Part shown: in pieces, positions 10,599-28,817 of the stretch
Layout of the letters: each line of letters begins with the position of its first letter
How positions within the stretch are numbered: the first letter of the stretch is position 1
Assembly (NCBI GenBank): GCA_964566255.1
Contig: CAZMID010000001.1
Coordinates: 83,152 to 147,151, forward strand
Direction of reading: 5' to 3'
Length of the DNA stretch: 64,000 bases
Source of the DNA: an uncultured Planctomycetia bacterium
Lineage (GTDB): Bacteria > Omnitrophota > Gorgyraeia > Gorgyraeales > Gorgyraeaceae
Notes under the pieces: model-generated
The model's database searches: none
What the model was told of the DNA's origin: nothing
What the model saw: only the letters and a program-made list of their open reading frames with translations
Translations under genes and position numbers: made by a program

Positions 10599-10613
10599 AT
10601 CGAGTTCAGATTA

Positions 10614-11075: not shown

Positions 11076-11091
11076 AAAAATTTCGGGAAAA

Positions 11092-11691: not shown

Positions 11692-11696
11692 TTTAA

Positions 11697-12026
11697 TTAA
11701 TTCCCGTCTTCAGCGTATCTATCTACAACACTCTTATCCCACAGCTTCACATCTGACTTATGAGCGCCTCTTGCAAGGGCATGGGCTGAAACAGGAGAAG
11801 TTAATATCAAAAATAACATACAAACCATGGCCTTTATACCTAAGGCAGTAAATCCGTACATAAGAAAAACACCAAATAAAATACTACATGTCCCCAGAGT
11901 TATACACTTTGTAGCTGCCTGAAGTCGGTTATAGACATCTGGAAGTCTTACTAGACCCAGGCATCCCATAAAATCAAAGAAAAGCCCAATAGATATAAAA
12001 ATTATGGCTACTGTATCAATCATCAA
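11697..12026 (-). CDS. Mrp antiporter subunit G-like (MbhC-like)
   Basis: 109 aa; GLVRLPDVYNRLQAATKCITLG matches the MnhG signature. Confidence 0.65.
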   Translation of the reverse strand: MMIDTVAIIFISIGLFFDFMGCLGLVRLPDVYNRLQAATKCITLGTCSILFGVFLMYGFTALGIKAMVCMLFLILTSPVSAHALARGAHKSDVKLWDKSVVDRYAEDGN

Positions 12027-12390
12027 AAGCCTTCCCCTCTAAAAATTTGGCAAGTGCAAGCGTTGCTATAAAACTCTGAAGTGCCCAGGCAATTGCTATA
12101 TCAATATACCAGCTCCTCCCAGTAGAAATCCCCATGATAGCACAAAAACCAACAATTAAAATACCTAACATATCAATAGTAACAGCTCTATCTGCAGAAG
12201 TAGGACCTCTTAAAATCCTATATAGACATAATATGGAGGAAAATAAAAGTACAAAAAATGCCCTCTTCAAAAAACCTATAAAAGGTAAATCCTGACAGAA
12301 AAGAATCGGTATGGGCTTAAATAATATTATAGCCATAATAGCTATAATCACACCTACGCCTAACATATAACGAAATCTAGATCTTTTCAT
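12016..12390 (-). CDS. Mrp antiporter subunit F-like (MbhB-like)
   Basis: 124 aa; LRGPTSADRAVTIDMLGILIV matches the MnhF signature. Confidence 0.6.
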   Translation of the reverse strand: MKRSRFRYMLGVGVIIAIMAIILFKPIPILFCQDLPFIGFLKRAFFVLLFSSILCLYRILRGPTSADRAVTIDMLGILIVGFCAIMGISTGRSWYIDIAIAWALQSFIATLALAKFLEGKAFDD

Positions 12391-12884
12391 TATTCAAATA
12401 TCCTCTTTAAAATATTCTGAAATCTATCTACTATCAACTTTGTTGCCTTATCAATATCTTTATTTTTTACCTCGATCCAATGAATATATAAAACCCCTTC
12501 TTCCTTATCCACATCTACTGTCAATGTCCCAGGTGTAAGGGTAATAGAATTTGCTAAAAATGTGAGGGCTGTATCTGATTTTAAAGTGGTCTTTACCTTC
12601 ACTATGCCAGGGTGTATTGGTAAATCAGGATGAAGAACTCTATACGCTACATCAATATTTGCCTTAAAACACTCCCATATAAATATAGGTATATAATATA
12701 AAAACCACAAATATCTCTCAATATGCGTAAAAAGATGCGCCCTTTTTACAAAAAGGTCTCCTGTCATATGGGCGACAAAGGCTGAGACAAAAACACCTAC
12801 AACTATATGCTGCCAATCAGGCACCCAGTTCAACAAGCTCCAGACCAAAAATCCTAATAAAAATAACAAGATCTTACTTTTCAT
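12390..12884 (-). CDS. Mrp antiporter subunit E-like (MbhA-like)
   Basis: 164 aa; two N-terminal TM helices plus a soluble domain; size and position match MnhE. Confidence 0.55.
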   Translation of the reverse strand: MKSKILLFLLGFLVWSLLNWVPDWQHIVVGVFVSAFVAHMTGDLFVKRAHLFTHIERYLWFLYYIPIFIWECFKANIDVAYRVLHPDLPIHPGIVKVKTTLKSDTALTFLANSITLTPGTLTVDVDKEEGVLYIHWIEVKNKDIDKATKLIVDRFQNILKRIFE

Positions 12885-14380
12885 TTTATAGCTCCGAAAA
12901 TAACACCTGCATATTCTTTCCCGATCAATACTGCGTCTCTAGCAACTTTAAGAAAATCATCAGAAATCGCGGGCATTAAAAGAAGTCCACCTATTAAACA
13001 AATAAGTGCCAAAGTAATCATTGAAAACTTCATAAAAAACGGGACTTCCTTTATATGCTTTAAATTCTCTTTTAGCTCTCCGAAAAAGGCGAGCCTTTGG
13101 ACCTTCATAAAATATGCCAAAGTCAAGATACTCGCTACAACTGCCCAAACAGCATACGCAAAATGCTGTGCCTGGATACATGCGACTATGATAATCAATT
13201 TACTCCAGAAGCCATTAAAAGGCGGTACACCTGCAATAGCCATAGACCCTATAAGCGAGGTATTGGCTGTTATAGACATCTTCTCCCTAAGTCCACCCAA
13301 CTTGTCTAAATCCCTTATCCCTGTAGAATACTCCACTGCACCAGAATTCAAAAATAACAAAGACTTAAACACAGAATGATTTAATAGATGTAAAAGGCCT
13401 CCCATAATGCCAAGAGGTGTGCCTAAGCCAATCCCAAGTATAATATAACCAACCTGACTTATAGAGCTATAAGCCAAAAGTCTCTTAAAATCCTTTTGTC
13501 CAAGCGCAAGGCATACCCCTATAATCATCGACAAGGCCCCTAAGGCCATCAATGCACCCAAAATCTTTGGGTTTGGACCCAAGACACTAAAAAATATCCT
13601 TATCATTGCGTAGGCACCAAGGGATTTTATAAGAAGACCTGAAAGCATTGCTGAAATCGGCGCAGGCGCAGATGGATGTGCATCTGGAAGCCATGCATGA
13701 AAAGGAACAAGTGCTGTTTTTAACCCAAAACCCATGAGGAATAAAACGCTAACAAGTAATATTATACGAGGAGTCTCTCCTTTAGCTAATTCCAATGACA
13801 TATCAGCCATGTTCAAGGTAGAAGTAAAGCTATATAAAAACACTATCCCTAATAAAATAAATGAAGAGGCCAACGTCCCCATCACAGCATATTTAAAAGA
13901 CGCCTCAAGCTCTTCATGTTCTGTACCAAATGCAACTAATGCATAACTTGAAATAGCAGCTATCTCAAGGAATACATACAGATTAAACATGTCTCCAGAT
14001 ATCACAACCCCATTCATGCCAGCAATCATCAAAAGAAATAGGCAATAAAAATTCCATTTCTCAGTATATCTCTCCATATAATTTATAGAGTAAATGCTAA
14101 TCAAAAATGCGATTGTATTTATTACAACCAGCATAAATATAGTCAATCCATCCATAACCATTGAAATGCCTATAGGAGGTATCCATCCACCAACTTTATA
14201 TACGATAATGCCTATCTGTCTAAATAGGATCACAGAGTATACTGAAAGTGCTGCCAGAGAAAATGTGGCGATACCAGATAATATATCTGAAAAAGACTTT
14301 ATCTTTTTCCCAAGGAGCGAATTTAAAAACGCAGCCCCTAATGGTATAGCAACAAATAATGGCAATAGATTATGATTCAT
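12881..14380 (-). CDS. Mrp subunit D / NuoM-NuoN-like proton-pumping antiporter subunit
   Basis: 499 aa polytopic protein; conserved HAWLPDAH-type motif (FHAWLPDAHPSAP). Confidence 0.75.
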   Translation of the reverse strand: MNHNLLPLFVAIPLGAAFLNSLLGKKIKSFSDILSGIATFSLAALSVYSVILFRQIGIIVYKVGGWIPPIGISMVMDGLTIFMLVVINTIAFLISIYSINYMERYTEKWNFYCLFLLMIAGMNGVVISGDMFNLYVFLEIAAISSYALVAFGTEHEELEASFKYAVMGTLASSFILLGIVFLYSFTSTLNMADMSLELAKGETPRIILLVSVLFLMGFGLKTALVPFHAWLPDAHPSAPAPISAMLSGLLIKSLGAYAMIRIFFSVLGPNPKILGALMALGALSMIIGVCLALGQKDFKRLLAYSSISQVGYIILGIGLGTPLGIMGGLLHLLNHSVFKSLLFLNSGAVEYSTGIRDLDKLGGLREKMSITANTSLIGSMAIAGVPPFNGFWSKLIIIVACIQAQHFAYAVWAVVASILTLAYFMKVQRLAFFGELKENLKHIKEVPFFMKFSMITLALICLIGGLLLMPAISDDFLKVARDAVLIGKEYAGVIFGAIK

Positions 14381-14383
14381 AAA

Positions 14384-14722
14384 TCAACCTTTTAACTTAC
14401 GTATCTTTGTAATATCAAATGTCTTGTATTTTTCATAAACCCTTATAGCAATAGCTGCTATTAATGCAGTAACTGCAAGACCAATGACTATAGCAGTCAA
14501 AACAAGCGCCTGCGGCAAGGGATCCACCATATCAAGGACTAACTGGTCCTGGGAATGTATTGGAGAACGGCCATTCATCTTATAACCTACCAACACAAAA
14601 AAGAGATTCACTGCATATTCAACTATGGCTATACCTATAATAATCTTTATTAGGTTGCGCTTCCTAAGTATGCAATAAAGTCCTATAGAAAAAAGTACAA
14701 GGCATAGAAAATAAACACTCAT
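14384..14722 (-). CDS. Mrp subunit C / NuoK-like
   Basis: 112 aa; 3 TM helices; NuoK/MnhC-like. Confidence 0.6.
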   Translation of the reverse strand: MSVYFLCLVLFSIGLYCILRKRNLIKIIIGIAIVEYAVNLFFVLVGYKMNGRSPIHSQDQLVLDMVDPLPQALVLTAIVIGLAVTALIAAIAIRVYEKYKTFDITKIRKLKG

Positions 14723-15177
14723 TTTTTATCGCCATCCTTTTTATTTATCTTAAATAGTACGAGTATAACAAATATAATAAAAAGACCTGAAGCTACCTTA
14801 AGGCTTATCGCTATATTATATAAAGGAATAAGGCCTGAACTGAAAAGATTGAACGGTTCTCCCTTTGGCATAAAATTCAAAAAGAAATACCCAGTTAGAA
14901 TACCAAGAACTGCTAATGTAATAAAAATAAGTGCGCCCAAACTTTCAAACAAAGATGCAACATTTAAACTTACTTTTTTAAGTGCTACGTCTTTTCCAAA
15001 GGCAAGCATTATATGAATAAAAGAAAGCGCAACGATTACCCCTCCTGCAAAACCTCCACCAGGACTAACATGGCCATGTCCGATAATATAGATACCAAAC
15101 AGAAATATCAGCCCTACTGTTAAGCGTGTAATCGTCTTTACTATTAAACTCATTCCATTCTGGGCTTCTCTCATCAA
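14719..15177 (-). CDS. Mrp subunit B-like (MnhB domain)
   Basis: 152 aa; HGHVSPGGGFAGGV matches the MnhB signature. Confidence 0.65.
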   Translation of the reverse strand: MMREAQNGMSLIVKTITRLTVGLIFLFGIYIIGHGHVSPGGGFAGGVIVALSFIHIMLAFGKDVALKKVSLNVASLFESLGALIFITLAVLGILTGYFFLNFMPKGEPFNLFSSGLIPLYNIAISLKVASGLFIIFVILVLFKINKKDGDKK

Positions 15178-15695
15178 TCCTTCTTCCTTCCGACCCTTCT
15201 CATAACTGCTAAAACACCTATTGCAGCTGTAAACAATATGGTCGCCTCTCCTAATGTATCATATGCCCTATAATCTAAAACAACAGATGCAACTAAATTA
15301 GCTGAACCCGTCTTATCAAGGCCGTGGCTTAAAAAGTTCTGTGCTACTCTCATTATCGGCTCTCCAAATTGAGGCAGATCCTTCATGCAAAAATATCCAA
15401 AACCTAAAAATATAGCAAGGAATAAAAACGTTATAAACGTATTAAAAAACCATCTTCCGCTCGTAGAAAACGGTAGATCCCTTCTGATAGTAGCCCTTAT
15501 CAATATTATCACGCATAATATTTCGACCACGAGCTGAGCAATTGCTAAATCAGGTGCCTTGAGGATCAAAAACGCAAGTGATAGCCCAAGACCGGCTGTA
15601 CCCACTGCTATAACCGAGGAAAGTAGATCCTTTGATGCCACTGCGATTATTGCGCCTATAATTATAAATACTAGGAGTATCTGTAGTTCAAGCAT
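15174..15695 (-). CDS. Mrp-associated small membrane subunit (MbhD/E-like, DUF4040-type)
   Basis: 173 aa polytopic protein between the MrpA-like and MrpB-like genes. Confidence 0.45.
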   Translation of the reverse strand: MLELQILLVFIIIGAIIAVASKDLLSSVIAVGTAGLGLSLAFLILKAPDLAIAQLVVEILCVIILIRATIRRDLPFSTSGRWFFNTFITFLFLAIFLGFGYFCMKDLPQFGEPIMRVAQNFLSHGLDKTGSANLVASVVLDYRAYDTLGEATILFTAAIGVLAVMRRVGRKKD

Positions 15696-15702
15696 GCTTC
15701 AA

Positions 15703-17481
15703 TTACCTCACTATCGTAAAAAGAAATACTATCATCCCTAACAAACACCACACAAGATACGTCGGCAATATCCCATTGTGCAAATACTGGAATATACGGA
15801 TAAAGAAAAATACTATTCTTCTAGTTTGATCATAAATATCAAAGGCCTTTCTTTCGGCCCTTAAATAAAGTCCCTTTATTAATGGCATTTCTTTTATTGT
15901 GTTGTAAAATTCTGTACCTGAGAGCTTCATGTCTTTTGCAAGCTCTTCTCCTCCTATATAAGAATCAGTCTCTCTTACGCCCTTAAAATTACCCAATAAG
16001 TATATCAAGATTCCTACCAAAATCCCTATACCTAAGAATAACGTAGCCTGCGAAGATGGCCAGATACCAATAAACCTTAAACTACCTTGCAAGGCTGGGA
16101 TTATAAAATGCCTTAAAGGAATGTGATACGCAAATATCCCAAAGATAATACAAAGGCCTGCTAAGACTACAGGGCCAAGCCACATAGTCCACGATACTTC
16201 ATTTCGCTTTTCGTCTTTTGACTTACCTAAAAATATTGCATGCATAAATTTTATAAAGGATGCTAATGTTAGGGCGCTGCCAATGACAGCGGCTACTATG
16301 CAAAATATCCAAAGTGTACCACCTGATCTACCTTTTTCTATCAAGCCCTGATATACCATCCATTTTGAGAAAAATCCATTAAAAGGCGGAACGCCCGATA
16401 TAGATAAGGCTGCTATAAGCGCGGAGAAAAAACTTATTGGCATTACCTTTGCCAATCCGCCTAAAGAATCTAGATCTGATGTTTTAGACTTATATTGAAC
16501 ATTGCCCCCTGTAAGAAATAGGCAACATTTATATATTGCATTATTAAGCATATGAAAAAGTCCACCTGCAATACCTATGACACTTCCAGTGCCTAATCCA
16601 AGCACCATATAACCAACTTGACTTACTGCATGATAACCAAGAAGTTTTTTAAAATCATGCTGCACAAGCGCCATCATAACTGCTGCTACTATAGTAACAG
16701 CACCCACTACCATAAGAAGTGCATAAGTAAAATTATCCAATATAAAAATATTCAACACCAATCTTGCCAATAGATAAATACCAAGTAATTTATCAAGTGA
16801 GGCTGGTAAAAATGCAGTCACAGGTATATGGGCCTCTTTTGCTGTATCAGGTATCCATGTATGAAAAGGCATTGCACCTGCCTTTGCAAAAGCACCTATT
16901 GCTATCAATAAAAATGCCCAGAAGGACAAACTATTATTTATAGGTATCTCCAACTCGCTTAAACTTAAAGATCTTGTCATAAGCCATATAATCGCAAAAC
17001 CCAATATCATAAGACTGTCAGAGCCACCTATTATAATAAAGGTCTTTTTACTTATTGCAGCTGATCGAGGTCCTGCTACATTGATCAACATATAAAGCGT
17101 AAACCCTAAAAACCCCCATGCAACCAGAAGGATCATGATATTATTTGAAACTGCTGCTAAAATAGAAAAACCAATAGTCCATATAATATTAGCATAATAT
17201 GATCGTATTTCTTCACATGAAGCCATAAAACGTATTGAATATAAGCTAACTATCACCCCAAAGAACCCTACTCCCAGCACGATAAACCTGGAAAGACCAT
17301 CTACATATAAAAATTTTCCAAAGATTGGGGCCTGGATAAAGATTTTTATCGACGCTATAAAAAGGTATATGGCAGTGATAAGGCTGACGCCTTCTATTAC
17401 CTTCCTAAACTTCTTTGGAATAAGAAGGATAAAAGTCCCTATAATTATTGAAAGTATTATTGGTCTTAACAGTGTTTCCAT
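15703..17481 (-). CDS. MrpA / NuoL-like antiporter subunit (MbhH-like)
   Basis: 592 aa polytopic protein; MPFHTWIPDTAKEAHIPVTAF motif typical of the NuoL/MrpA family. Confidence 0.75.
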   Translation of the reverse strand: METLLRPIILSIIIGTFILLIPKKFRKVIEGVSLITAIYLFIASIKIFIQAPIFGKFLYVDGLSRFIVLGVGFFGVIVSLYSIRFMASCEEIRSYYANIIWTIGFSILAAVSNNIMILLVAWGFLGFTLYMLINVAGPRSAAISKKTFIIIGGSDSLMILGFAIIWLMTRSLSLSELEIPINNSLSFWAFLLIAIGAFAKAGAMPFHTWIPDTAKEAHIPVTAFLPASLDKLLGIYLLARLVLNIFILDNFTYALLMVVGAVTIVAAVMMALVQHDFKKLLGYHAVSQVGYMVLGLGTGSVIGIAGGLFHMLNNAIYKCCLFLTGGNVQYKSKTSDLDSLGGLAKVMPISFFSALIAALSISGVPPFNGFFSKWMVYQGLIEKGRSGGTLWIFCIVAAVIGSALTLASFIKFMHAIFLGKSKDEKRNEVSWTMWLGPVVLAGLCIIFGIFAYHIPLRHFIIPALQGSLRFIGIWPSSQATLFLGIGILVGILIYLLGNFKGVRETDSYIGGEELAKDMKLSGTEFYNTIKEMPLIKGLYLRAERKAFDIYDQTRRIVFFFIRIFQYLHNGILPTYLVWCLLGMIVFLFTIVR

Positions 17482-18653
17482 TTTCTTCTCAACTTTTCTG
17501 TTTTTTCCTGCGAAAGTCGTATTAGATCATGTCCATCCATAATCTTTCTACCATTATTACAATCTACAACTGCCATTCGTTCTGTACAACAGTAACACGG
17601 ATCCACTGCAGCTAAAATTATAGTAGCATCTGAAATGGTTTCACCTATTACAGCCTTTTTATTAGATGCGATATTCATGTAACTTGGAGCCCTTACCTTA
17701 TGCCTAGCAGGAGAATTGCTACCATCAGACATTATATAATGAAATACTTCTCCTCTTGGAGCTTCATGCCTACCAATGCCTTCTCCAACAGGCATATCCT
17801 TTATCTTTAAGTCGATTTCACCTTTTGGCATTGTATCAAGACACCTTAATATAATATTAGTAGATTCATAAAGTTCTAATATCCTTACAGCTGCCTTTGC
17901 AAAAACCCCTCCTCCTTCATTAGAAATCATCTTCCAGTCTATTTTATCGTATGCAGCATAAGGATCATCTTTTCTGACATCAATACCGACTCCTGAAGCC
18001 CTCGCTGTCGGACCCACAACAGAATAATCATGTACATCCTGTTTTGTTAATACTCCGACTCCTTTGGTCCTTGCATGTATCACAGGATCATCCATTACAG
18101 CACCCTTAAACATATCAAATTTAGGAATTAAATCTGTAAGGGTCTTTTTTATCCAGGGAATGTCTTCTTCTAAAATATCCCTTCTTACTCCACCTGGCTT
18201 AAACATAGCATAATGATTTCTATTTCCAGTAATTCTTTCAAATATATCAAGGACTGGTTCTCTATACCTCCATGCCCACATCCATACAGTATTATATCCT
18301 AAAAAGTGTCCTGCAAGGCCTAACCATAAAAGATGACTATGGACTCTTTCGAGCTCTCCTATTATTGTGCGGATATAAAGAGCTCTTTCAGGGACTTCAA
18401 CACCTAAAAGATCATCAATAGCATTTGTATAAGCAAAAGGGTGCGATGTAGAACAAATTCCACAGATCCTTTCAACTAAAAATGTTACTTGATCATAACT
18501 TTTGGATTCGGCTATTTTTTCAATAGCCCTATGATTATAGCCGATTTCAATATCTATATCGACGACAGTCTCACCATCTACGTGAAGCCTAAAAAATTCC
18601 GGCTCTTCCTGTAATGGATGATAAGGTCCTATTGGAATAATTTTATGTGCCAT
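17466..18653 (-). CDS. Group-4 [NiFe]-hydrogenase large subunit (NuoD-like, MbhL/EchE-type)
   Basis: N-terminal RICGICSTSH and C-terminal DPCYCCTER Ni-Fe ligand motifs, followed by a ~35-aa C-terminal extension (substrate for the HycI protease). Confidence 0.85.
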   Translation of the reverse strand: MAHKIIPIGPYHPLQEEPEFFRLHVDGETVVDIDIEIGYNHRAIEKIAESKSYDQVTFLVERICGICSTSHPFAYTNAIDDLLGVEVPERALYIRTIIGELERVHSHLLWLGLAGHFLGYNTVWMWAWRYREPVLDIFERITGNRNHYAMFKPGGVRRDILEEDIPWIKKTLTDLIPKFDMFKGAVMDDPVIHARTKGVGVLTKQDVHDYSVVGPTARASGVGIDVRKDDPYAAYDKIDWKMISNEGGGVFAKAAVRILELYESTNIILRCLDTMPKGEIDLKIKDMPVGEGIGRHEAPRGEVFHYIMSDGSNSPARHKVRAPSYMNIASNKKAVIGETISDATIILAAVDPCYCCTERMAVVDCNNGRKIMDGHDLIRLSQEKTEKLRRKWKHC

Positions 18654-18657
18654 AATA

Positions 18658-19092
18658 TTATTGATCTCTCCTCAAAGGAAAATTACCTTCAGGCCAATCG
18701 TCTTTTAAAAGTAAATGCTTTGGATTTGGGTGGCCTCTAAATTTTACACCCAGAAGTTCGCGTATCTCCATTTCTATCCATTCTGCGCATTTCATTATAG
18801 AAGTAAGGCTATCTATTTCAAGGTTTGATTTGTCCAGAATAACCTTTAATGTAACTATAAGTCCGATATCATCTATTGAAAAGTGATAAAGTATCTCAAC
18901 TGCTTCTCTTGTATCCACTCCGGATGCTATTGAAAATCGTGCCTTTCTTTCATTAAAAAGATATCTCACTATTTTAGGAAGTATTTCTTTCTTAATCGTA
19001 ACATAAACCCTTCTTTTGGATTTATCTATAAGTTCCAGCATGTCTTTGCCGGCACGGACTTTTATATTTTCTATTATCTCTCGCCTCTTCAT
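18658..19092 (-). CDS. NuoC-like hydrogenase subunit (MbhK-like)
   Basis: 144 aa; lies between the large and small subunits as in Mbh/Ech operons. Confidence 0.55.
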   Translation of the reverse strand: MKRREIIENIKVRAGKDMLELIDKSKRRVYVTIKKEILPKIVRYLFNERKARFSIASGVDTREAVEILYHFSIDDIGLIVTLKVILDKSNLEIDSLTSIMKCAEWIEMEIRELLGVKFRGHPNPKHLLLKDDWPEGNFPLRRDQ

Positions 19093-19514
19093 TTATTCCC
19101 TCTTAATTTACCAATCAACTTCACTATACCTAGTATCATTGCCTCTGGTTTTGGCGGGCAACCTGGTATATAAACATTTACCGGAAGAATAGAATCTACA
19201 GGATTTGGCGTATTTGGTCCATTTGCAAACATACCCTGACCACAAGAGCACGCTCCTATCGCAATAACAACGCATGGCTTTGGGGCCTGATCATAGATAG
19301 CCTTTACCCTAGGTATTGTCTTAAGGTTTAAGGCACCTGTTACAAGTATTGCATCAGCATGCTTTATGCTACCAACAAGCATTATCCCGAATCTTTCCAC
19401 GTCGAATCTCGGAGTCAGAAGATCCAGGATTTCTATATCGCAATTATTGCAACTACCTGTTGAAAGGTGGTAAACCCAGATAGATTTTGTTAATGCTTTT
19501 AATTTTAAGCTCAT
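19089..19514 (-). CDS. [NiFe]-hydrogenase small subunit (NuoB-like, MbhJ-type)
   Basis: 141 aa; CNNCDIE ... GACSCGQG ... GCPPKPE are the cysteines of the proximal [4Fe-4S] cluster. Confidence 0.8.
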   Translation of the reverse strand: MSLKLKALTKSIWVYHLSTGSCNNCDIEILDLLTPRFDVERFGIMLVGSIKHADAILVTGALNLKTIPRVKAIYDQAPKPCVVIAIGACSCGQGMFANGPNTPNPVDSILPVNVYIPGCPPKPEAMILGIVKLIGKLRGNK

Positions 19515-20416
19515 TACATGCCTCGCACTGCAAGAAATACTGCAATTACAGCTATTAAAGTCATTTTTCCCCAGAAAAATCTCATTGCCTGATCAACCCT
19601 AACCCTGGGATTCGTATTCCTCATTAAAATTATTACAACTAAAAGTACTACGTATTTCCATATACTAAATCCGCCCCAAAATACCGTAATTAAAAATAGA
19701 GGAAGTGCTACCATCATCATTGTCTTTGTAAGTTTAAATATAGCAAGTAAAATCCCTGAATACTCTATATGAGTACCTGCCATTATCTCTGTCTCTGCCT
19801 CTCCTGCATCAAAAGGTACAAGCCCTAACTTTGCCTGCATACAGAATATTGCAACTAATATGGAAAGAATTCCTGACAAACTTGATATAAATGCCCCATT
19901 CATTGCCTGATAAGTAAGTAATTCATGCAACCTTAAAAGTCCATTACTTTTTATAATAGGTACAGTTAATACTAGAATAAAAGGTAATTCATAAGAAAGC
20001 ATAAGCTTTATCTCTCTTGATAGGCCAACCGATGCCAAAGGATTACCGCTGGCTGATGCACCTAACATAAGAGAAATCGCTGGTAATGTCAATAAATACA
20101 AAATAACTATTAAATCTCCCCTAAAACCACTTGGCATTACCTCTATATTAGATAGCCACAGAAAAGTTGAAGCCAATATTACAGCACTAAGTCCTATAAA
20201 AGGCGAAGCCATAAAAAGTGTCTTTGAGGAAGACTTTGGAATAGTGATTTCCTTTATGCTTAATTTTACTAAATCTATAAGAGGCTGGTACCAAGGTGGA
20301 CCTACCCTCCACTGTACGCGGGCCGTAACCTTACGATCTATCCAGCTTGCGACCAAACCGACAGCTGCTGTAAAAATAAATCCAGGAAATATTAAAAAAT
20401 TAAATAATAGTTTCAT
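19514..20416 (-). CDS. NuoH-like membrane subunit (MbhM/HycD-type)
   Basis: 300 aa with about 8 TM helices; position matches Mbh/Ech operons. Confidence 0.7.
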   Translation of the reverse strand: MKLLFNFLIFPGFIFTAAVGLVASWIDRKVTARVQWRVGPPWYQPLIDLVKLSIKEITIPKSSSKTLFMASPFIGLSAVILASTFLWLSNIEVMPSGFRGDLIVILYLLTLPAISLMLGASASGNPLASVGLSREIKLMLSYELPFILVLTVPIIKSNGLLRLHELLTYQAMNGAFISSLSGILSILVAIFCMQAKLGLVPFDAGEAETEIMAGTHIEYSGILLAIFKLTKTMMMVALPLFLITVFWGGFSIWKYVVLLVVIILMRNTNPRVRVDQAMRFFWGKMTLIAVIAVFLAVRGM

Positions 20417-20898
20417 TATGGGTGATATTTCTTCCAGGGTTTTGCATGGACTGCAATATTTTTACCTATTAAAAATATATCGTCCTTTTCTGATTCATCT
20501 ACTTCGGTAAATTTCACTGCATCTTTTATGGAACAACTCTTTACACATACAGGTACTTCTTTTTTACTCCTATCTATACAAACATCGCACTGGGAAGTAA
20601 TATAAGGTACTGTCTCAATAGGGATTGTACCAAAAGGGCACGACATACTACAAGATTTACAAGATATACATCTCATTGTATAACGCTTTATCGTACCATC
20701 ATCTTGTTTTTCCAGTGCGTCTTTAGGACAACTCGTTACACAGGGTGCCTCTTCGCACTTCCTGCAGATATGTAAAAATTGTGCTATTTCTCTTAAGCGG
20801 GTTATGCCTGAATTCCCAGGACGGTAATAATAACTGCAATCTGCCTTTACCTCTTCACAGCTATATAATTTTTCAAGATCTATAAATAAACGTTTCAT
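20416..20898 (-). CDS. 4Fe-4S poly-ferredoxin (HycB-like electron-transfer subunit)
   Basis: 160 aa with four CxxC-type cysteine clusters (CRKCEEAPCVTSCP, CISCKSCSMSCP, CDVCIDR ... CVKSC). Confidence 0.65.
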   Translation of the reverse strand: MKRLFIDLEKLYSCEEVKADCSYYYRPGNSGITRLREIAQFLHICRKCEEAPCVTSCPKDALEKQDDGTIKRYTMRCISCKSCSMSCPFGTIPIETVPYITSQCDVCIDRSKKEVPVCVKSCSIKDAVKFTEVDESEKDDIFLIGKNIAVHAKPWKKYHP

Positions 20899-20900
20899 AC

Positions 20901-21725
20901 CTAGTCCCAGATTTCGTGAATGTTATTTATTTTATCATACCTAAATACAGGACCGTCTTTACATACATAAAAATTTCCGATCCTACAGTGGCCACATTTA
21001 CCTACGCCGCAACTCATATTCTTTTCCATTGATAGATAGATTTGATTTTCTTTATATCCTACCTCAAGTAATTTAAAGGTTGAAAATTTCATCATTATTG
21101 GCGGGCCGCATACAATTGCTACACTATTTTTTAGATGAAGGTGTAAATTATCAAGTGTTGTGGTCACAAGACCAACTTTTCCTTTCCAACTATCATCTTT
21201 TTTATCAACTGTAACCCTAAAATCTACCTTTTTATCTATCTTCTGCCATTTATCTAAAACACTATCCTTAAATATAATATCTGATGGTGTCTTCGAGCCA
21301 CAGCAGAATAATATACTTTTATATTTATCTATATCGTGAACTAATGCCAAAAATAACGCCCTTAATGGTGCGAGCCCTACTCCTCCTCCTACAAGTAAAA
21401 TCTCTTTACCTTCAAACTCAGTTAGAGGATATTCATTACCATATGGGCCTCTTAATCCTACTATATCTCCTTTTTTTAAATCATGTATTCTAGAGGTAAC
21501 TAAACCTACTTTCATGATGCTGATTTCTATTTTACTCTTTTGATAAGGAGAAGATGATGGCGTAAATGGCGCTTCTCCTACACCAGGAATAGTCATTTCC
21601 ATAAACTGGCCTGCCTTAAAATGCATTGGCTTATCAGGTTTAAGAGAAAACGTCTTTATAGTAGGACTCTCACTGCATACATCCAGGACCTCTGCTTTTG
21701 TAGGTATATAAGGATTTTCTATCAT
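20901..21725 (-). CDS. FAD/NAD(P)-binding oxidoreductase subunit with C-terminal [2Fe-2S] (HydG/AsrB/PyrK-like)
   Basis: 274 aa; ferredoxin-reductase-type fold motifs; C-terminal CGVGKCGHCRIGNFYVC 2Fe-2S motif. Confidence 0.7.
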   Translation of the reverse strand: MIENPYIPTKAEVLDVCSESPTIKTFSLKPDKPMHFKAGQFMEMTIPGVGEAPFTPSSSPYQKSKIEISIMKVGLVTSRIHDLKKGDIVGLRGPYGNEYPLTEFEGKEILLVGGGVGLAPLRALFLALVHDIDKYKSILFCCGSKTPSDIIFKDSVLDKWQKIDKKVDFRVTVDKKDDSWKGKVGLVTTTLDNLHLHLKNSVAIVCGPPIMMKFSTFKLLEVGYKENQIYLSMEKNMSCGVGKCGHCRIGNFYVCKDGPVFRYDKINNIHEIWD

Positions 21726-22741
21726 AATTTACTAAGGACCTCATCGATGCGTATCTTGCCAGGACAGGCTTCACTGCACCTTCCGCAGCCAGTACAGCCA
21801 AATCTTCCGATCGTATCTGGGAAAAAATTAAATTTTTTATCAAAACGGTTTCTTATTCGCTCTGCTAAAAGTTTTCTTGGATTTGCATTGCCTGCAACTC
21901 TTGCGAAAGAAAGTAAAAGACAAGAATCCCACAGCCTCAACCTTTCAAACCCTCCTTCTTTAGCCTGATCCTTTAAGATAAAACAGTGACAAGCAGGACA
22001 TATTACATTACAAGCACCACACTCGACACACGTTTTGACAGTCTCTTCCCATAACTTTGAATCAAACTTCTTCTTAAAAAGGTTCTGAACTTTAGAAGCA
22101 TCTGGTATATTTTTCTTTTTTGTATGCTTTGCGATTTCTTCTTCTAATTTTTTCCTATGCGTTTCCTTTTTTTCAATATAAAGATCTGCATTCTGGAATA
22201 ATTTAAAATACTCTTTTACTATTTTTTCTCCTTTTTCTGAACCTATTTCTGCAACGTAACCACTTTCTATCTCTGAAAGATTTATATCAAACCCTTCTTT
22301 TGGATATGGCATTATACCCAAAGCTACACAAAAACAAGTATCTTTATAACAAGTGCAATCACTTGAAATTATAAGACTCTCTTCTCTTCGGGAAATATAA
22401 GATGGATCCTTAAAAGAATCTTGACTAAAGACATAATCCATCACCTTTAATGAAGCCAAATCACACGACTTGGCGCCTATTATAGCTACAGGTCTTATCT
22501 TTTTATCGGAAATCTTCTCAGAAAAGTAATCTGCTACTTTTGTCCTGGCGAGAAAATAGAAACTCTTTATAGATTGTACTGGTCTTACCTCGCCTATGAC
22601 AGCATCTTCAAGCCCTTTATCTCCAACACGTTTATACTGTAAATTATCGTCGGATTTTACAGGGGCATAAACCCTGTGTGTCTTAAAAAGGGACTTGGCG
22701 AGTCTGTCAAGATTTGGTCGATTTATAAAATACGTGTCCAA
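21722..22741 (-). CDS. Iron-sulfur subunit (HydB/AsrA-like)
   Basis: 339 aa; CVECGACNVICPACHC and CTGCGRCSEACPG motifs; 4-nt overlap with the HydG-like gene; apparent TTG start. Confidence 0.65.
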   Translation of the reverse strand: MDTYFINRPNLDRLAKSLFKTHRVYAPVKSDDNLQYKRVGDKGLEDAVIGEVRPVQSIKSFYFLARTKVADYFSEKISDKKIRPVAIIGAKSCDLASLKVMDYVFSQDSFKDPSYISRREESLIISSDCTCYKDTCFCVALGIMPYPKEGFDINLSEIESGYVAEIGSEKGEKIVKEYFKLFQNADLYIEKKETHRKKLEEEIAKHTKKKNIPDASKVQNLFKKKFDSKLWEETVKTCVECGACNVICPACHCFILKDQAKEGGFERLRLWDSCLLLSFARVAGNANPRKLLAERIRNRFDKKFNFFPDTIGRFGCTGCGRCSEACPGKIRIDEVLSKL

Positions 22742-22851: not shown

Positions 22852-23271
22852 TTAAAAATGTAGCTCCATTGCTCGCGGCGGACAGGCCTTTATGCATAAT
22901 TCGCAAGCAATACACTTGTCATTATGAAAAAGTACTTTTTGTGTTTTAGGATCTATTATTAATGCCTCTGTTGGGCATATAGGAACGCATGCCCCGCAAT
23001 GAGTACACTTCTCTTCATCCCTCTTTATATCCTTAGAAAGTGGTTGAACCGCAAGACCTAAGGATTTGGCATACTTTAGAGCCTTATCAAAATTCTTATC
23101 CTCACCTTTAAGTTCAAGGACCAAAAGCCCTTCTTCCTTTGGAGTGACATGTGCCTTTAATATATTAAACTCCAAGTCATAATCCTTCACCATCTTATAG
23201 ATTATAGGTTGATCTACGAGTCTATGGGGAAATTTTAAAACAATTCGTTCGCATTTCATTTTAACCTCCAA
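22852..23271 (-). CDS. NIL-domain / 4Fe-4S ferredoxin fusion protein
   Basis: 139 aa; N-terminal NIL-like domain (as in the MetN C-terminus); C-terminal CTHCGACVPICP and CIACELCIKACP motifs. Confidence 0.6.
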   Translation of the reverse strand: MEVKMKCERIVLKFPHRLVDQPIIYKMVKDYDLEFNILKAHVTPKEEGLLVLELKGEDKNFDKALKYAKSLGLAVQPLSKDIKRDEEKCTHCGACVPICPTEALIIDPKTQKVLFHNDKCIACELCIKACPPRAMELHF

Positions 23272-23998
23272 CTAATTCTATATCTCCTAAAACACCAAAA
23301 TCCTTTTTATAGATTATAAGGGCTCCTTTTACACCTTTTATATTAAGGGCCCACTTGAGACTAGGTTTAATATCTTCTTTTCTCTTTACTCTATTACTCG
23401 TTGCAGTTGCAACTGCATCTGCTAAAATCGTAGATTTAGATATTATAACACAGGCGTCTGCTTTTCCAAAGCTTAAAGAATGCCCTATTGTACCAGATGA
23501 CGTACATATACCAAGAGGTGTATCTTCTGATTTTATCTTTATAAAAAGCTTATTTGTAAGAGGTGAATCACCTGCGTATATCGCTACAGTCCTATCGATA
23601 TCGGATTTTATAAATATATCGCCTCCATTTTCAATTATAACCTCTTTAGTAGTAGATAAAAGATCTTTTCCTACAAATTCTGATATTGCTCCTGCAACAC
23701 TTGCCATTGGTCCGACCTCGGCTTGAGTAGATTTAATCATCATATCCTTTATAATACTAGGTGCATTTTGATCTAAAGGTAATGACTTGAGGCTCGTCTT
23801 AAAATCAGGGTGAATTTTAATATAATTTTCTATTTCACATCTATATTTTTCTATTAATTCCTTGGCAATATTTTTTACATCCTTTTTAGCATAGATAAAA
23901 ATATCCGTTTCATTAACAGTAACTTCTTGAGGAATAAGATCATCTGAAGCTATCCATTTTCTATAAAATCTTTCTTGGTAATCTTTGCTCTTAGCCAT
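23261..23998 (-). CDS. UPF0280 / ApbE-like family protein
   Basis: 245 aa; GPMASVAGA and GICTSSGTIGHS motifs resemble the ApbE-related UPF0280 family. Confidence 0.45.
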   Translation of the reverse strand: MAKSKDYQERFYRKWIASDDLIPQEVTVNETDIFIYAKKDVKNIAKELIEKYRCEIENYIKIHPDFKTSLKSLPLDQNAPSIIKDMMIKSTQAEVGPMASVAGAISEFVGKDLLSTTKEVIIENGGDIFIKSDIDRTVAIYAGDSPLTNKLFIKIKSEDTPLGICTSSGTIGHSLSFGKADACVIISKSTILADAVATATSNRVKRKEDIKPSLKWALNIKGVKGALIIYKKDFGVLGDIELVGG

Positions 23999-24000
23999 AA

Positions 24001-24345
24001 TTATTCGATCTCTATTGAAGCAACTGATATGCCTTTACCTTCGATCAAGTCATTTATATTGCTTTTACACTTAGGACATCCCCCAAGACCGGTTTCAACT
24101 TGAAATTCATAACTACAGTTCTTACATTTAAACTTAGCTTCTACTTTTTCAAAGTTAAGTTCTGCCTTTTCAAGAGAAGTTCCTTTTGCACGCTCTCTAA
24201 AATGAAATTCAAAATGTTCTGAACTTATTCCTTCTAATTCACCTATAAGTATATTTATCTTTTTAACCTTTGAATTAAGCTTTTCTTCTTTTAACTTAGC
24301 ATTTATAACACAAAGTATATCATCTACCATGCCTATTTCATGCAT
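24001..24345 (-). CDS. hypA: Hydrogenase nickel-incorporation protein HypA
   Basis: 114 aa; starts MHEIGM; zinc motifs CKNCSYEF and CPKCKS. Confidence 0.85.
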   Translation of the reverse strand: MHEIGMVDDILCVINAKLKEEKLNSKVKKINILIGELEGISSEHFEFHFRERAKGTSLEKAELNFEKVEAKFKCKNCSYEFQVETGLGGCPKCKSNINDLIEGKGISVASIEIE

Positions 24346-24357
24346 ATCTGTCTCCTT

Positions 24358-25356
24358 CTAACATATCCTTGGTAATTGTTCACCCCTTGCCATATCTAAA
24401 ATCCTTGATCCACCTATTTCAGTCTTTAAATAAACCTTTCTATCTTTTTTTCTTTCAATTTCACCTATAATTTGACTATTTTTACCTAAAGGGTGTTTTT
24501 TCATTCTAGATAAGACTTTTGAGGCAGCACTTTTTGAAACTATAACTACTACCTTACCTTCATTTGCCATATATAAAGGATCAAACCCTAATATCTCACA
24601 TAATGCCTTTACTGACTCTTTTATAGGTACTTTTGATTCATCTATACCTATATTATAGCCTGAAGCCATACTAATCTCATTTAATGTGGTAGCAAGGCCC
24701 CCTCTAGTAGGATCCCTCATAAACTTTATATCCTTAGATATAATAGACGATATAAGGCTATTTAAAGGGGCGCAATCACTAAGAATTCTTGATTTAAATC
24801 TAAGATCCTCCCTTGCAAGTAAAATACTTGATGCATGATCTCCTACAGTACCGCTTATAATAACCTTATCTGTCGGACTTATCCGGTCAATTGAGATCCT
24901 GGCATCCTTAATGATTTCTCCTACCCCGGAGGTATTTATAAAAATCTTATCTATGGAACCTTTTTCAACAACCTTAAAATCTCCTGCAACTATATTTACA
25001 CCTGCTTTTTTAGAAGCTAATTTTATAGAAAGAGTTATTTTTTCTAAATCTTTATAAAGAAATCCTTCTTCTACGATCATCCCGCATGATATATACTTAG
25101 GTCTTGCACCAGATACAGATAAATCATTAACTGTACCGCAAATAGAAAGCTTTCCTATGTCTCCTCCAGGAAAAAATATAGGATTAATAACAAAAGAATC
25201 CGTTGTATAGGCAAATTTTTTACTTTTAGTATCAATAAGTGCAGAATCTCCTAACTTTTTTAAAAAAGGATTGTCTAAATGCTTTAAAAATAAATCCTTT
25301 ATTAAATCATGCATCAGACTTCCGCCGCTTCCATGGGATAAGGTTATCTTTTTCAT
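24358..25356 (-). CDS. hypE: Hydrogenase maturation factor HypE
   Basis: 332 aa; AIR-synthase-related fold; ends with the conserved PRIC. Confidence 0.85.
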   Translation of the reverse strand: MKKITLSHGSGGSLMHDLIKDLFLKHLDNPFLKKLGDSALIDTKSKKFAYTTDSFVINPIFFPGGDIGKLSICGTVNDLSVSGARPKYISCGMIVEEGFLYKDLEKITLSIKLASKKAGVNIVAGDFKVVEKGSIDKIFINTSGVGEIIKDARISIDRISPTDKVIISGTVGDHASSILLAREDLRFKSRILSDCAPLNSLISSIISKDIKFMRDPTRGGLATTLNEISMASGYNIGIDESKVPIKESVKALCEILGFDPLYMANEGKVVVIVSKSAASKVLSRMKKHPLGKNSQIIGEIERKKDRKVYLKTEIGGSRILDMARGEQLPRIC

Positions 25357-26441
25357 CGCCTATACCTATAATATGCACTACATGCACCTTCACTAGAGAC
25401 CATGCATGCCCCTATAGGATTAGAAGGGGTACATTTTTTAGAAAATAACTTACAGTCAAAAGGTATCTTTATACCTTTTAAGACATCCCCGCAAATACAA
25501 CCTCTATCAGGTACTGTTTTTATAGTCGGTAAAGAAAATCCTCTTTCAGCATCAAATTTGGAATATTTCTTTTTCAAAGTGAGACCACTTTTAGGGATAT
25601 TACCTATGCCTCGCCATTCAGAATCATCTATTGAAAAAACTTCATTCATTAAATTCATGGCCTTTTTATTACCTAAAGGTTTAACTACTCTTTTATATTG
25701 ATTTTCGACCTTACTCTTTTTTAAACGAATCTGTTCTACGATCATCAAGATTCCCTGCAATACATCAAGTGGTTCAAATCCCGTTACAACACATGGAATA
25801 TTATATTTTCCGCTGACTATATTATAAGGTTTTGTACCTATAATAGTACTTACATGGGCTGGGCATAAAAATCCATCTATATTTACATTAGGATCTTTTA
25901 CCAAAACCTCCATTGCAGGTAAAATTACTTTATGTCCAGAATATAGAAAAAAATTCCTGATATTTTTCTTTTTTGCATATATCAAACTTGCGGCTATAGT
26001 AGGAGATGTGGTCTCAAACCCTACAGCAAGAAATATCACTTTTTTATCTTTGTTTTTTCTGGCAATATCTACTGCATCCAAAACTGAATATACAACTTTT
26101 ACTAAACCTCCTTTTGATTTTTCATCTATAAGACTGGAGTGAGACCCCGGTACCCTCATCATATCTCCAAAAGTCACTATAATAACTCCGGGAAGTTTAG
26201 ATAAAGCTATAGTTTTATCTATGTAGGATTTTGGAGTTACGCATACAGGACATCCTGGACCTGATAGAAGGTTTATATTTTCAGGTATTAGTTTACGGAT
26301 GCCAAATTTACAGATAGACATTGTATGTGTACCACACACCTCCATTATATTTATAGGTCCTAGACCTAAGGCCTTATCAAAAATAATCTTTGAAACTCTT
26401 TTAGCTATTTTATTATTTCTGAATTCGTCTATATACTTCAT
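25353..26441 (-). CDS. hypD: Hydrogenase maturation factor HypD
   Basis: 362 aa; GPGCPVC and FLCPAHV motifs of HypD. Confidence 0.85.
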   Translation of the reverse strand: MKYIDEFRNNKIAKRVSKIIFDKALGLGPINIMEVCGTHTMSICKFGIRKLIPENINLLSGPGCPVCVTPKSYIDKTIALSKLPGVIIVTFGDMMRVPGSHSSLIDEKSKGGLVKVVYSVLDAVDIARKNKDKKVIFLAVGFETTSPTIAASLIYAKKKNIRNFFLYSGHKVILPAMEVLVKDPNVNIDGFLCPAHVSTIIGTKPYNIVSGKYNIPCVVTGFEPLDVLQGILMIVEQIRLKKSKVENQYKRVVKPLGNKKAMNLMNEVFSIDDSEWRGIGNIPKSGLTLKKKYSKFDAERGFSLPTIKTVPDRGCICGDVLKGIKIPFDCKLFSKKCTPSNPIGACMVSSEGACSAYYRYRR

Positions 26442-26647
26442 AGGACATCCTTTAACATCTGAAGGGTCTCTTGTGCCTTTTTAGGACTTATTTTTTCTAT
26501 GGCAAAACCCGCATGGACAACTACATAATCTCCTATTTTTGGATTAGTTAAAAAATTAATGGCAATCTTGCGCTGTATATTTGCTGCAGATACTATTGCC
26601 CTATCACCTTCTATCTTTAAAATCTTCATTGGTATTCCTAAACACAT
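26438..26647 (-). CDS. hypC: Hydrogenase maturation factor HypC
   Basis: The true start is the internal MCLGIP (HypC always begins MC(L/A)(G/A)IP), preceded by a GAGGT SD; the ORF track's upstream extension is not used; 69 aa. Confidence 0.8.
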   Translation of the reverse strand: MCLGIPMKILKIEGDRAIVSAANIQRKIAINFLTNPKIGDYVVVHAGFAIEKISPKKAQETLQMLKDVL

Positions 26648-26657
26648 ATCTATTACC

Positions 26658-27761
26658 TCATCCAGCAAGGGCTGCTTGACCCAATGCAATATTACCATCG
26701 TGAAATGGAACATTTTTATGTAAATATACCTTAAAATCTTCTTTTTCTAAAAGAGGGGTTACACGATCTATCAAATATCTATTTTGAAATACCCCTCCAC
26801 TCAAAACTACCTTAGAAATCTTATATTTTTTTCTTAATAAAATGGAAAGTTCTTTTATCATATCGCAAATTGTATTATGAAATTTTAAAGATATAGTGCC
26901 TTTAGGAATTTTTCTCTTAAGGTCATTAACTACACCTTTAATAAGTTTATTATGCTTTATTACAAAAATATCTTTATTCTTCACGATATCAAAATTATAA
27001 GATTTTGTATTTTTTGCATTTGATATTACCTTTTCCAGTTCAATTGCTGCTTGAGCATCGTATTTTGCAATATTACATATGTCGAGAATAGATGATACGG
27101 CATCAAAAAGCCTTCCCACACTAGAGGTCAAAGGTGAATTTATACTTTTTTTAATAATTTGTATCAAAAATTCTGATTTTCCTCTTTCTAACTTGATGAT
27201 ATTTGGAAAGTTATCCCCGTATACACTATATAAATAACTCAACGCCATGCGATACGGCTCTTTTACTGCCATCTCTCCTCCAGGCATAGGTACATATTGT
27301 AAATGGCTAGCTCTTTTAAATCCTTTAATGCCACCTACAAAAAACTCACCTCCCCAAATATTTCCATCAAGACCGAATCCTGTTCCATCAAATGCAATAC
27401 CTATTACATCGCCTTTTATTTTATTATCTACAATTGAACTTGCTATATGAGCATGATGATGTTGAATAGATTTTAACTTAAAATTACTATTTTTTACCAA
27501 ATCATCTGCATATTTAGTAGATATGTATTCTGGGTGAAGATCGCATGCAATAATGCGTGGAGTTAACTTTAGCTTTTTCTTTAAATTCTTTATTCGCCTT
27601 TCAAAAACCCTGAAACTTTCCATATTACTTAAATCTCCATCGGGCTTTGAAAGATAAGCTATATTATTTTTAACAAAACAAAAGCTATTCTTTGATTGTG
27701 CGCCGACAGCAAAAATTTCAGCTTTTTTCCGCCGAGGAAAATTTATCGTAGTGTAATCCAT
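26658..27761 (-). CDS. hypF: Carbamoyltransferase HypF, C-terminal Kae1/YgjD-like domain only (the N-terminal acylphosphatase, Zn-finger and YrdC domains are absent)
   Basis: 367 aa; HHHAHIAS and C-terminal LSGGVFQN ... DGNIALGQA motifs of the HypF C-domain. The gene starts 6 nt after the stop of the unrelated upstream gene. Confidence 0.7.
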   Translation of the reverse strand: MDYTTINFPRRKKAEIFAVGAQSKNSFCFVKNNIAYLSKPDGDLSNMESFRVFERRIKNLKKKLKLTPRIIACDLHPEYISTKYADDLVKNSNFKLKSIQHHHAHIASSIVDNKIKGDVIGIAFDGTGFGLDGNIWGGEFFVGGIKGFKRASHLQYVPMPGGEMAVKEPYRMALSYLYSVYGDNFPNIIKLERGKSEFLIQIIKKSINSPLTSSVGRLFDAVSSILDICNIAKYDAQAAIELEKVISNAKNTKSYNFDIVKNKDIFVIKHNKLIKGVVNDLKRKIPKGTISLKFHNTICDMIKELSILLRKKYKISKVVLSGGVFQNRYLIDRVTPLLEKEDFKVYLHKNVPFHDGNIALGQAALAG

Positions 27762-27767
27762 GGTAAG

Positions 27768-28817
27768 TTATCTTAAATTATCTTTTGCTAACTGGCTGAG
27801 TCCTGGAAGTTTAGACAAGACTTTATCTGTCAAATCTTGGGAGAGCGTACCCATTCCACAACTGGGAGTAATTAAAGATTGACGTATTAATAAATCTCGG
27901 GGGATTCCTTTTTTCTCCAGTTTTTTGATTTCTGATGAAAGCTTATCAAAAAGCGACTTTTCAGTCTCCTTTAATATAGCGTTAGATGTAGGAACAATAC
28001 CCCAGGCAAAGACTCCACCTCTTTTTAAAAACTCAGTTATATCGCTAGGATACAATGAAAGTCCATCTACATAAGAATATGCATCAAAATTTATAATATC
28101 GACGTTTGATTCAGTAAAAAGCGACCAATCTGTGTTACCGCAACAGTGAATTCCACTTAACGCTCCTTCTGAATGTATCTTATCTATTATAGAATTGAGC
28201 ATCAAGATCACATCCTGCCTTTCGATATTAACAAAACTCGAACCAAAGCTCGTAAGGTATGGCTCATCTACAAATATAATGACATTTTTAGAAATATTCT
28301 TTAATTTATGTATCTGATGAGCAGCTTTTATTTCTAAAAGTTTAACAAATCCCTCTTTTAAGGTATCGTTATATATTATGGACTTTCCTTTTTCATCAAC
28401 AACGCTTAATCCAAAACTAACAGGACCTGTAACATGACCTTTTACATAATTTGGATTGAATTTTTTAGCTAGATCCAAAAATACATAAAGACCCTCTGCA
28501 AAATCCCTTGAAAGCCCAAACGATTCATAGTCTCCTGAAAGATAAGCCTCATAGATCTTACCTAACCCTTCGCTTAAATCTTTGGTAGTATCTACAAATA
28601 TCTTTCTATTTTTTTCATCTATGGTAAGTGAGGGTAGACCCTCTGCGAACTGAACATACATGTTTTCTTTAAAGCTCCTCTTTGTTAGCTGAGGCCAAAA
28701 AGGTATGTCAAATTTAGTAGAGATTAGTTCTATGGATGCCTTTAAATCAACTAAAGGCAAACTCCCTATTCCAGTTGTAAGAAACTTTTCCTTGATCTTC
28801 ATGATTTGTAAACTCAA
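27768..28817 (-). CDS. Cobalamin-independent methionine synthase (MetE) catalytic-domain-like / URO-D-superfamily protein
   Basis: 349 aa; putative zinc-ligand motifs IHCCGN and ITPSCGMG resembling the MetE C-terminal domain; its first ~70 nt overlap bioD. Confidence 0.45.
   Translation of the reverse strand: MSLQIMKIKEKFLTTGIGSLPLVDLKASIELISTKFDIPFWPQLTKRSFKENMYVQFAEGLPSLTIDEKNRKIFVDTTKDLSEGLGKIYEAYLSGDYESFGLSRDFAEGLYVFLDLAKKFNPNYVKGHVTGPVSFGLSVVDEKGKSIIYNDTLKEGFVKLLEIKAAHQIHKLKNISKNVIIFVDEPYLTSFGSSFVNIERQDVILMLNSIIDKIHSEGALSGIHCCGNTDWSLFTESNVDIINFDAYSYVDGLSLYPSDITEFLKRGGVFAWGIVPTSNAILKETEKSLFDKLSSEIKKLEKKGIPRDLLIRQSLITPSCGMGTLSQDLTDKVLSKLPGLSQLAKDNLR

Follow-up and report, generated by a model that had tools for sequence, protein, structure and literature searches.

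A truncated HypF has been known since the 1990s in one bacterium, C. necator, where it occurs alongside full-length copies, and to our knowledge the source of its substrate was never established. In t6A synthesis (TsaC/Sua5 with TsaD/Kae1), the adenylate-making and transfer activities are located on separate proteins. As in HypF, YrdC makes the adenylate and Kae1 transfers the group, and the same holds for the TobZ/NodU-type O-carbamoyltransferases; TobZ-type enzymes differ from the protein described here in having the YrdC-like domain fused to their C-terminus. Canonical HypF contains three active sites joined by a channel and follows a three-step mechanism, in which the acylphosphatase domain turns carbamoyl phosphate into carbamate and the YrdC-like domain makes carbamoyl-AMP (PMC6022934, PMC9633730). 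The labile carbamoyl-AMP travels through the internal channel of the protein (PMC6022934). In the literature, HypF1 of C. necator is regarded as a natural truncation of HypF, one that probably requires carbamoyl adenylate. It did not complement an E. coli hypF mutant (PMC5350229) and was seemingly inactive under anaerobic conditions (PMC9100943).

We analyzed a 64-kb stretch of Omnitrophota DNA, hereafter called the window, which contains a short hypF (hypF-C) followed directly downstream by hypC, hypD, hypE and hypA, all of them intact:

26658-27761, minus strand: hypF-C, encoding the Kae1-like carbamoyltransferase domain of HypF as a protein of its own (367 aa, ATG start)
26438-26647, minus strand: hypC (69 aa; the PF01455 and TIGR00074 matches begin at residue 23 of a longer ORF)
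25353-26441, minus strand: hypD (PF01924, 509.6 bits; TIGR00075, 505.9 bits, over the cutoff)
24358-25356, minus strand: hypE, encoding the carbamoyl-group acceptor (TIGR02124, 460.4 bits, over the cutoff)
24001-24345, minus strand: hypA (PF01155, 91.6 bits; TIGR00100, 84.1 bits, slightly below the cutoff of 88.1)

The 367-aa protein has PF17788 (residues 12-111) and PF22521 (residues 121-362), both covered over their full length, and no other Pfam domain. It covers the hypF model TIGR00143 at profile positions 383-739 of 741 and scores 293.5 bits, below the cutoff of 466.1 for a whole, canonical HypF. When we searched the window with E. coli HypF (from NC_000913) by tblastn, the alignment was restricted to residues 394-739 (E 6e-44), and residues 395-745 of the 761 residues of Caldanaerobacter HypF (3VTH) aligned with HypF-C at 280 bits. 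A preliminary description of this DNA had proposed that only the Kae1-like half of HypF is encoded, in 367 aa, and that the gene begins at the Kae1-like domain; Pfam and the coverage of TIGR00143 bear out the first point, and the alignments with the full-length proteins from E. coli and Caldanaerobacter place the breakpoint at the boundary between the YrdC-like and Kae1-like domains. The ORF cannot be extended at its 5' end, where an in-frame TAA, the stop codon of the preceding gene, stands three codons before the ATG.

The preliminary description had also stated that the acylphosphatase, zinc-finger and YrdC-like domains are missing, and it named a frameshifted N-terminal HypF sequence directly upstream as one observation that would speak against its reading. 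Neither statement had to be revised. Residues 1-385 of E. coli HypF had no match in the 64-kb window (tblastn, best E 0.9), nor did an HMM of the N-terminal half (N-half), built from the five full-length HypFs of E. coli, C. necator, a Salmonella plasmid, Sulfobacillus and Mycobacterium, match the six-frame translation of the window. The acylphosphatase domain (PF00708), the two HypF zinc fingers (PF07503) and the YrdC-like domain (PF01300) had no Pfam match in HypF-C, and a HypF-type N-half containing them left no trace in the window by tblastn or HMM. Both searches thus ruled out a frameshifted or decayed N-half immediately upstream, where an intact 344-aa gene is found instead, or anywhere else in the window. 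Nothing relevant was found in the 10 kb of the source contig past the left end of the window.

Compared with the canonical four-domain HypF (E. coli, Caldanaerobacter 3VTH, Thermococcus 4G9I; TIGR00143), HypF-C is homologous over the full length of the Kae1-like domain and shares the metal residues and the operon partners, but without the acylphosphatase, zinc-finger and YrdC-like domains it has a single active site out of three and no channel. The residues equivalent to H475, H479, D502 and D727 of E. coli HypF, which we take to be the metal-binding residues of the Kae1-like site, are kept within the motifs QHHHAH, FDGTG and HDGN, and these positions were invariant in an alignment of 22 diverse members. 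HypF-C is not a TsaD: it scored 30.6 and 29.6 bits with the models of the t6A proteins TsaD/Kae1/Qri7 (TIGR03723 and TIGR00329), which have cutoffs of 296 and 208.

We asked how widespread the short form is. The best 120 relatives from a search of 5.8 billion protein clusters were all 309-432 aa long, 48-79% identical to HypF-C, and contained PF17788 and PF22521 only. The named members among them all came from Candidatus Omnitrophica/Omnitrophota MAGs except for one labelled just 'bacterium'. We then compared 20 Omnitrophota-type loci from independent assemblies, covering up to 10 kb around hypF-C and 270 kb in total. Their HypF-C proteins were 43-76% identical to the window protein, the common layout was hypF-C followed by hypC, hypD and hypE, mostly with hypA as well, and the N-half HMM detected no N-half in any of the 20. 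As a positive control, the same HMM was applied to 76 informative HypF loci from other lineages, and in 75 of them it located an N-half fused just ahead of the Kae1-like domain, so the lack of such a match in the Omnitrophota loci is meaningful; the sole exception, L099, was another Omnitrophota-type locus. The control loci came from a metagenome scan with the HypF-C alignment, in which the matches listed were mostly canonical HypFs, suited to a control more than to enlarging the set of Omnitrophota loci. Across a large Omnitrophota clade, the Kae1-only HypF is the usual form and not a quirk of one genome. Among the papers searched, none linked Omnitrophota and HypF. In annotation pipelines and metabolic reconstructions, these MAGs should not be scored as lacking hypF or as carrying a hypF pseudogene.

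The Kae1-only architecture itself is already known from HypF1 of C. necator H16 (megaplasmid pHG1, 394 aa), which has the same Pfam content, PF17788 and PF22521 only, keeps the HHHAH and DG motifs, and is encoded directly upstream of hypC-hypD-hypE in a hyp operon. HypF-C thus shares the hallmarks of the HypF1 type: a lone Kae1-like domain of about 370-400 aa, whose gene precedes hypC in a hyp operon. However, the two proteins are just 26-29% identical, whereas HypF-C reaches 39-49% identity with full-length HypFs and HypF1 reaches 37-38% with those of proteobacteria. Because both proteins resemble full-length HypFs more closely than they resemble one another, these identities suggest that the truncations did not descend from a common short ancestor and arose independently, by convergence. 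The settings differ as well: C. necator is an aerobe with an adjacent hypB and full-length HypF paralogues, whereas the organism studied here carries an anaerobe-type group-4 hydrogenase and no hypB nearby, and its short HypF occurs with hypC, hypD and hypE throughout the clade. The Omnitrophota form is an apparently independent, clade-wide case, and it refines a known pathway without adding a new kind of system.

The preliminary description had called hypA, hypE, hypD and hypC intact and hypB missing. The Pfam and NCBIfam matches agree with the former, as do the true hypC start, which is the ATG at 26647 (MCLGIP...), and the HypE translation, which ends in a C-terminal cysteine (...PRIC). With HypB1 and HypB3 of C. 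necator as queries, we found no hypB (CobW/HypB GTPase) in the window, as that description had it, or in the 20 Omnitrophota-type loci. Given that hypA is usual but hypB is not found near the hyp genes, nickel may be delivered by another NTPase encoded elsewhere. Further downstream, the window encodes a hydrogenase and a maturation protease:

17466-18653, minus strand: large subunit of a group-4 (Mbh/Ech-like) [NiFe] hydrogenase (PF00346 and PF00374)
10614-11075, minus strand: HycI-type hydrogenase maturation protease (PF01750, 69 bits)

In the large subunit, both CxxC motifs are retained (RICGICSTSH and DPCYCCTER) and a C-terminal extension is present; together with the HycI-type protease gene, this marks the adjacent group-4 hydrogenase as a real client of the hyp genes. 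Within the surrounding region (10191-22741, minus strand), the hydrogenase with its Mrp-antiporter-like subunits adjoins two further proteins, one of the Fer4_22 type and the other FAD/NAD-binding with a DHODB-type Fe-S domain, an arrangement that points to an ion-translocating complex linked to NAD(P). A gene for a protein with a bifunctional-nuclease domain (10191-10598) adjoins hycI. Elsewhere in the window, a giant ORF (50206-63807, minus strand, at least 4533 aa) may continue past the window end; its only Pfam matches were weak Amnionless-like and Reelin-subrepeat ones, with no single stretch passing.

We consider it likely that hypF-C is a genuine, functional and lineage-conserved stand-alone Kae1-like HypF whose adenylate is made in trans by a separate enzyme. 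The domain content, integrity, conservation, operon context and catalytic residues are direct observations on the DNA, and the activity of HypF-C and its supply in trans would follow this scheme: as suggested by the operon context with hypC, hypD and hypE, HypF-C would catalyze the final HypF step only, the S-carbamoylation of HypE. HypE would then dehydrate the carbamoylated product to the thiocyanate, the source of the CN ligands for the adjacent group-4 [NiFe] hydrogenase. The hydrolysis of carbamoyl phosphate and the adenylation of carbamate would be carried out in trans by a separately encoded enzyme. We infer a separate protein because the first two active sites are not encoded in the window or within up to 10 kb of the gene in the relatives, and supply in trans is feasible since t6A synthesis also uses separate proteins. 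Candidate suppliers are a HypF N-half encoded apart from hypF-C, a full-length paralogue elsewhere in the genome, or a YrdC protein of the TsaC/Sua5 type; no candidate for the adenylate-forming partner was found in the window, in the adjoining 10 kb past its left end, or in up to 10 kb around hypF-C of the 20 relatives. The presence of a conserved form with hypC, hypD and hypE by a hydrogenase across the clade argues that a HypF consisting of the Kae1-like domain alone can do its work in the cell and is no duplicate in decay.

Several points count against this reading. Supply in trans looks inefficient, since canonical HypF channels carbamoyl-AMP internally (PMC6022934). HypF1 of C. necator did not complement the E. 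coli mutant (PMC5350229) and seemed inactive anaerobically (PMC9100943), whereas the Omnitrophota hosts are apparent anaerobes. As a tentative and less probable extension, genomes of the clade may lack any HypF module with acylphosphatase, zinc-finger and YrdC-like domains, and the CN ligands may derive from carbamoyl-AMP, or from some other activated carbamoyl donor, provided by a non-Hyp enzyme, for example TsaC/Sua5. If true, the HypF reaction would here be divided naturally between two proteins in strict anaerobes, and such a system could show where truncated HypF1-type proteins obtain their substrate, which has long lacked an explanation. More generally, the Omnitrophota clade is a setting in which comparative genomics could reveal the source of the carbamoyl adenylate.

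The alternative that survives best, which we still regard as unlikely, is that HypF-C, like HypF1 in C. necator, is a paralogue with a redundant or accessory role, and that a full-length HypF encoded elsewhere does the work or supplies the adenylate. HypF1 indeed shares its plasmid with at least one full-length HypF (an 819-aa hypF product; three HypF matches in the record), and we found one partial full-length HypF labelled Candidatus Omnitrophica (P0445). However, P0445 lies on a 3.4-kb contig, for which binning is unreliable, and its Kae1 part is 47% identical to the window protein, no closer than the HypFs of other phyla. Moreover, the Omnitrophota short gene is embedded with hypC, hypD and hypE beside a hydrogenase and is conserved down to 43% identity, which speaks against a redundant copy.

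The lack of a partner gene in the 20 neighbourhoods would also be expected if the Kae1-like protein were self-sufficient, forming the adenylate itself or using another carbamoyl donor with no YrdC-type partner. The Kae1-like domain does bind nucleotide, and AMPCP marks its active site in a solved HypF (PMC6022934). Yet the YrdC-like domain is needed for the adenylate in all characterised relatives (HypF, TobZ-type O-carbamoyltransferases and TsaC/TsaD), and the 367-aa protein has no extra sequence or domain. We therefore give self-sufficiency a small chance and prefer an adenylate made by a separate enzyme.

We considered whether the gene directly upstream of hypF-C, which encodes a conserved 344-aa protein, could provide a new partner that replaces the missing N-half. 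This gene and two others, located on the far side of the hyp block, are as follows:

27768-28802, minus strand: predicted MesB-type core methionine synthase that flanks hypF-C and lies outside the maturation system (344 aa, intact, conserved)
23261-23998, minus strand: UPF0280/COG2122 protein, ApbE-like (NCBIfam NF003323, 285.8 bits; Pfam PF27030 was precomputed in loci of relatives)
22852-23271, minus strand: protein with an NIL domain and a ferredoxin part with two [4Fe-4S] clusters, MA1822-like (PF09383 and Fer4 families)

The observations in favor of such a partner are its position and conservation. In the window, a gap of 6 nt separates the 344-aa gene from hypF-C, and in 19 of the 20 Omnitrophota-type loci it is found directly upstream or, in a second subclade, 1.5-3 kb upstream; the contig of the 20th locus starts at hypF-C. 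This position ahead of hypF-C is kept even where genes farther upstream vary, and the product of the 344-aa gene is more conserved than HypF-C (63% versus 57% in L002). L006 keeps the mesB-hypF-C neighbourhood without hypC, hypD and hypE. The TAA of mesB is in frame with the ATG of hypF-C (window 27759-27770), and readthrough would fuse both proteins; the shared frame is probably a coincidence, as the frames differ in L002.

The identity of the 344-aa protein points elsewhere. It had no match in a Pfam scan, and a PDB sequence search with the MesB-like profile returned zero matches. Its AlphaFold (AF2) model (pLDDT 92) has a MetE barrel fold, with Foldseek matches to MetE and MesD structures. 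MesB is the core methionine synthase of Dehalococcoides, for which Price et al. listed the zinc- and homocysteine-binding residues (PMC7857596). The invariant residues S14, D179, H219, C221, D240 and C315 of the 344-aa protein correspond to MesB residues 15, 177, 214, 216, 235 and 311. By the model and this residue correspondence, the protein combines a MetE-type barrel, an H-C-D/E-C zinc site and the Ser/Asp homocysteine-binding residues, as in MesB. Homologues in Dehalococcoidia MAGs are 44-47% identical, and a collection of species-representative genomes held relatives on at least 592 stretches. We fetched 80 of these loci, and hypF was not found nearby in any that came from Chloroflexota, Elusimicrobiota, Clostridia or other non-Omnitrophota phyla. 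The upstream gene thus probably encodes a MesB-type methionine synthase, as predicted from model and sequence, and is probably unrelated in function to HypF; the preliminary description had likewise judged it unrelated, and we add that it is a strictly conserved neighbour.

The two genes at the far end of the hyp block offer a reason for this linkage. Desulfovibrio and Methanosarcina depend on both families, COG2122 and NIL/ferredoxin, to make homocysteine (PMC5764234). In the window (22852-28802) and in L002, L004, L008-L018 and L099, the block of hypF-C, hypC, hypD and hypE, with or without hypA, lies between mesB and the COG2122 and NIL/ferredoxin genes, and in L058 mesB is directly beside COG2122 with no intervening hyp genes. 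We saw no DUF39 gene beside the NIL/ferredoxin gene. The simplest reading is that the Omnitrophota hyp genes sit inside a methionine-biosynthesis cluster, seemingly having been inserted there, which would explain the linkage of mesB and hypF by the flanking homocysteine genes and the order in L058.

The second, more distant Omnitrophota subclade has genes of the arginase family (speB-like) and for a pyruvoyl arginine decarboxylase (pdaD) between mesB and hypF-C. The order there is htpX-like peptidase, mesB, speB-like, pyruvoyl arginine decarboxylase and hypF-C, as seen in L006 (8001-11708), L018, L033, L035, L041 and L042; hypF-C of L006 retains this neighbourhood, and the 8-kb flank shown has no hypC, hypD or hypE. 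L018 has three extra ORFs between hypD and hypE, one of them N-terminally NadE-like. The interposed speB, pdaD and other genes indicate that these operons mix unrelated functions. Set against its position and conservation, the MetE fold with the complete set of MesB zinc and homocysteine residues, the lack of hypF nearby in the non-Omnitrophota loci among the 80, the homocysteine-synthesis genes on the far side of the hyp block together with the adjacency in L058, and the interruption of the relatives' operons by unrelated housekeeping genes (speB, pdaD, the NadE-like ORF) make it very improbable that the 344-aa protein is a partner of HypF-C. Following the homologue search, the AF2 model, Foldseek and the 80 loci, we rejected it as such in favor of a MesB methionine synthase linked to hypF-C by operon context.

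There is next to no chance that the short gene is an assembly or sequencing artefact or a pseudogene, in which an indel or misassembly around 27761-27770 broke a full-length hypF: frameshift-type adjacent hypF splits are known in other assemblies, but here the upstream sequence is an intact, conserved and unrelated gene with no HypF N-terminal sequence, and the recurrence of the identical architecture, across 120 database clusters and at 20 loci assembled independently from many samples, effectively refutes this reading.

We also searched for Omnitrophota N-halves encoded apart from their C-half. The nearest full-length relatives, P0248 and P0246, are 48-49% identical to the window protein in their C-terminal half (C-half). 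A second N-half profile, built from these two proteins, identified about 20 database entries consisting of an N-half only, five of which we examined. In four of the five the C-half gene followed immediately, as in adjacent splits of the frameshift type, one of them recurring in 16 contigs and some found in error-prone long-read assemblies; the fifth, P0431, had no recognisable C-half and lies ∼0.8 kb from a contig end. None of the five was a remote stand-alone N-half or an Omnitrophota-like N-half.

Other arrangements of hypF were seen in the same material. In L096-L098 (P0401), hypF consists of two adjacent genes in different frames, 18 nt apart, encoding 420 and 330 aa (313-1575 and 1593-2585 in L096), and this split was reproduced in 16 short-read contigs from several samples. 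L179 (10001-12294) has a comparable overlapping pair encoding 410 and 370 aa. These splits could be due to a fixed frameshift, to programmed frameshifting, or to a genuine two-subunit HypF. In P0254 (928 aa), a HycI-type maturation protease domain is fused to the N-terminus of a four-domain, full-length HypF.
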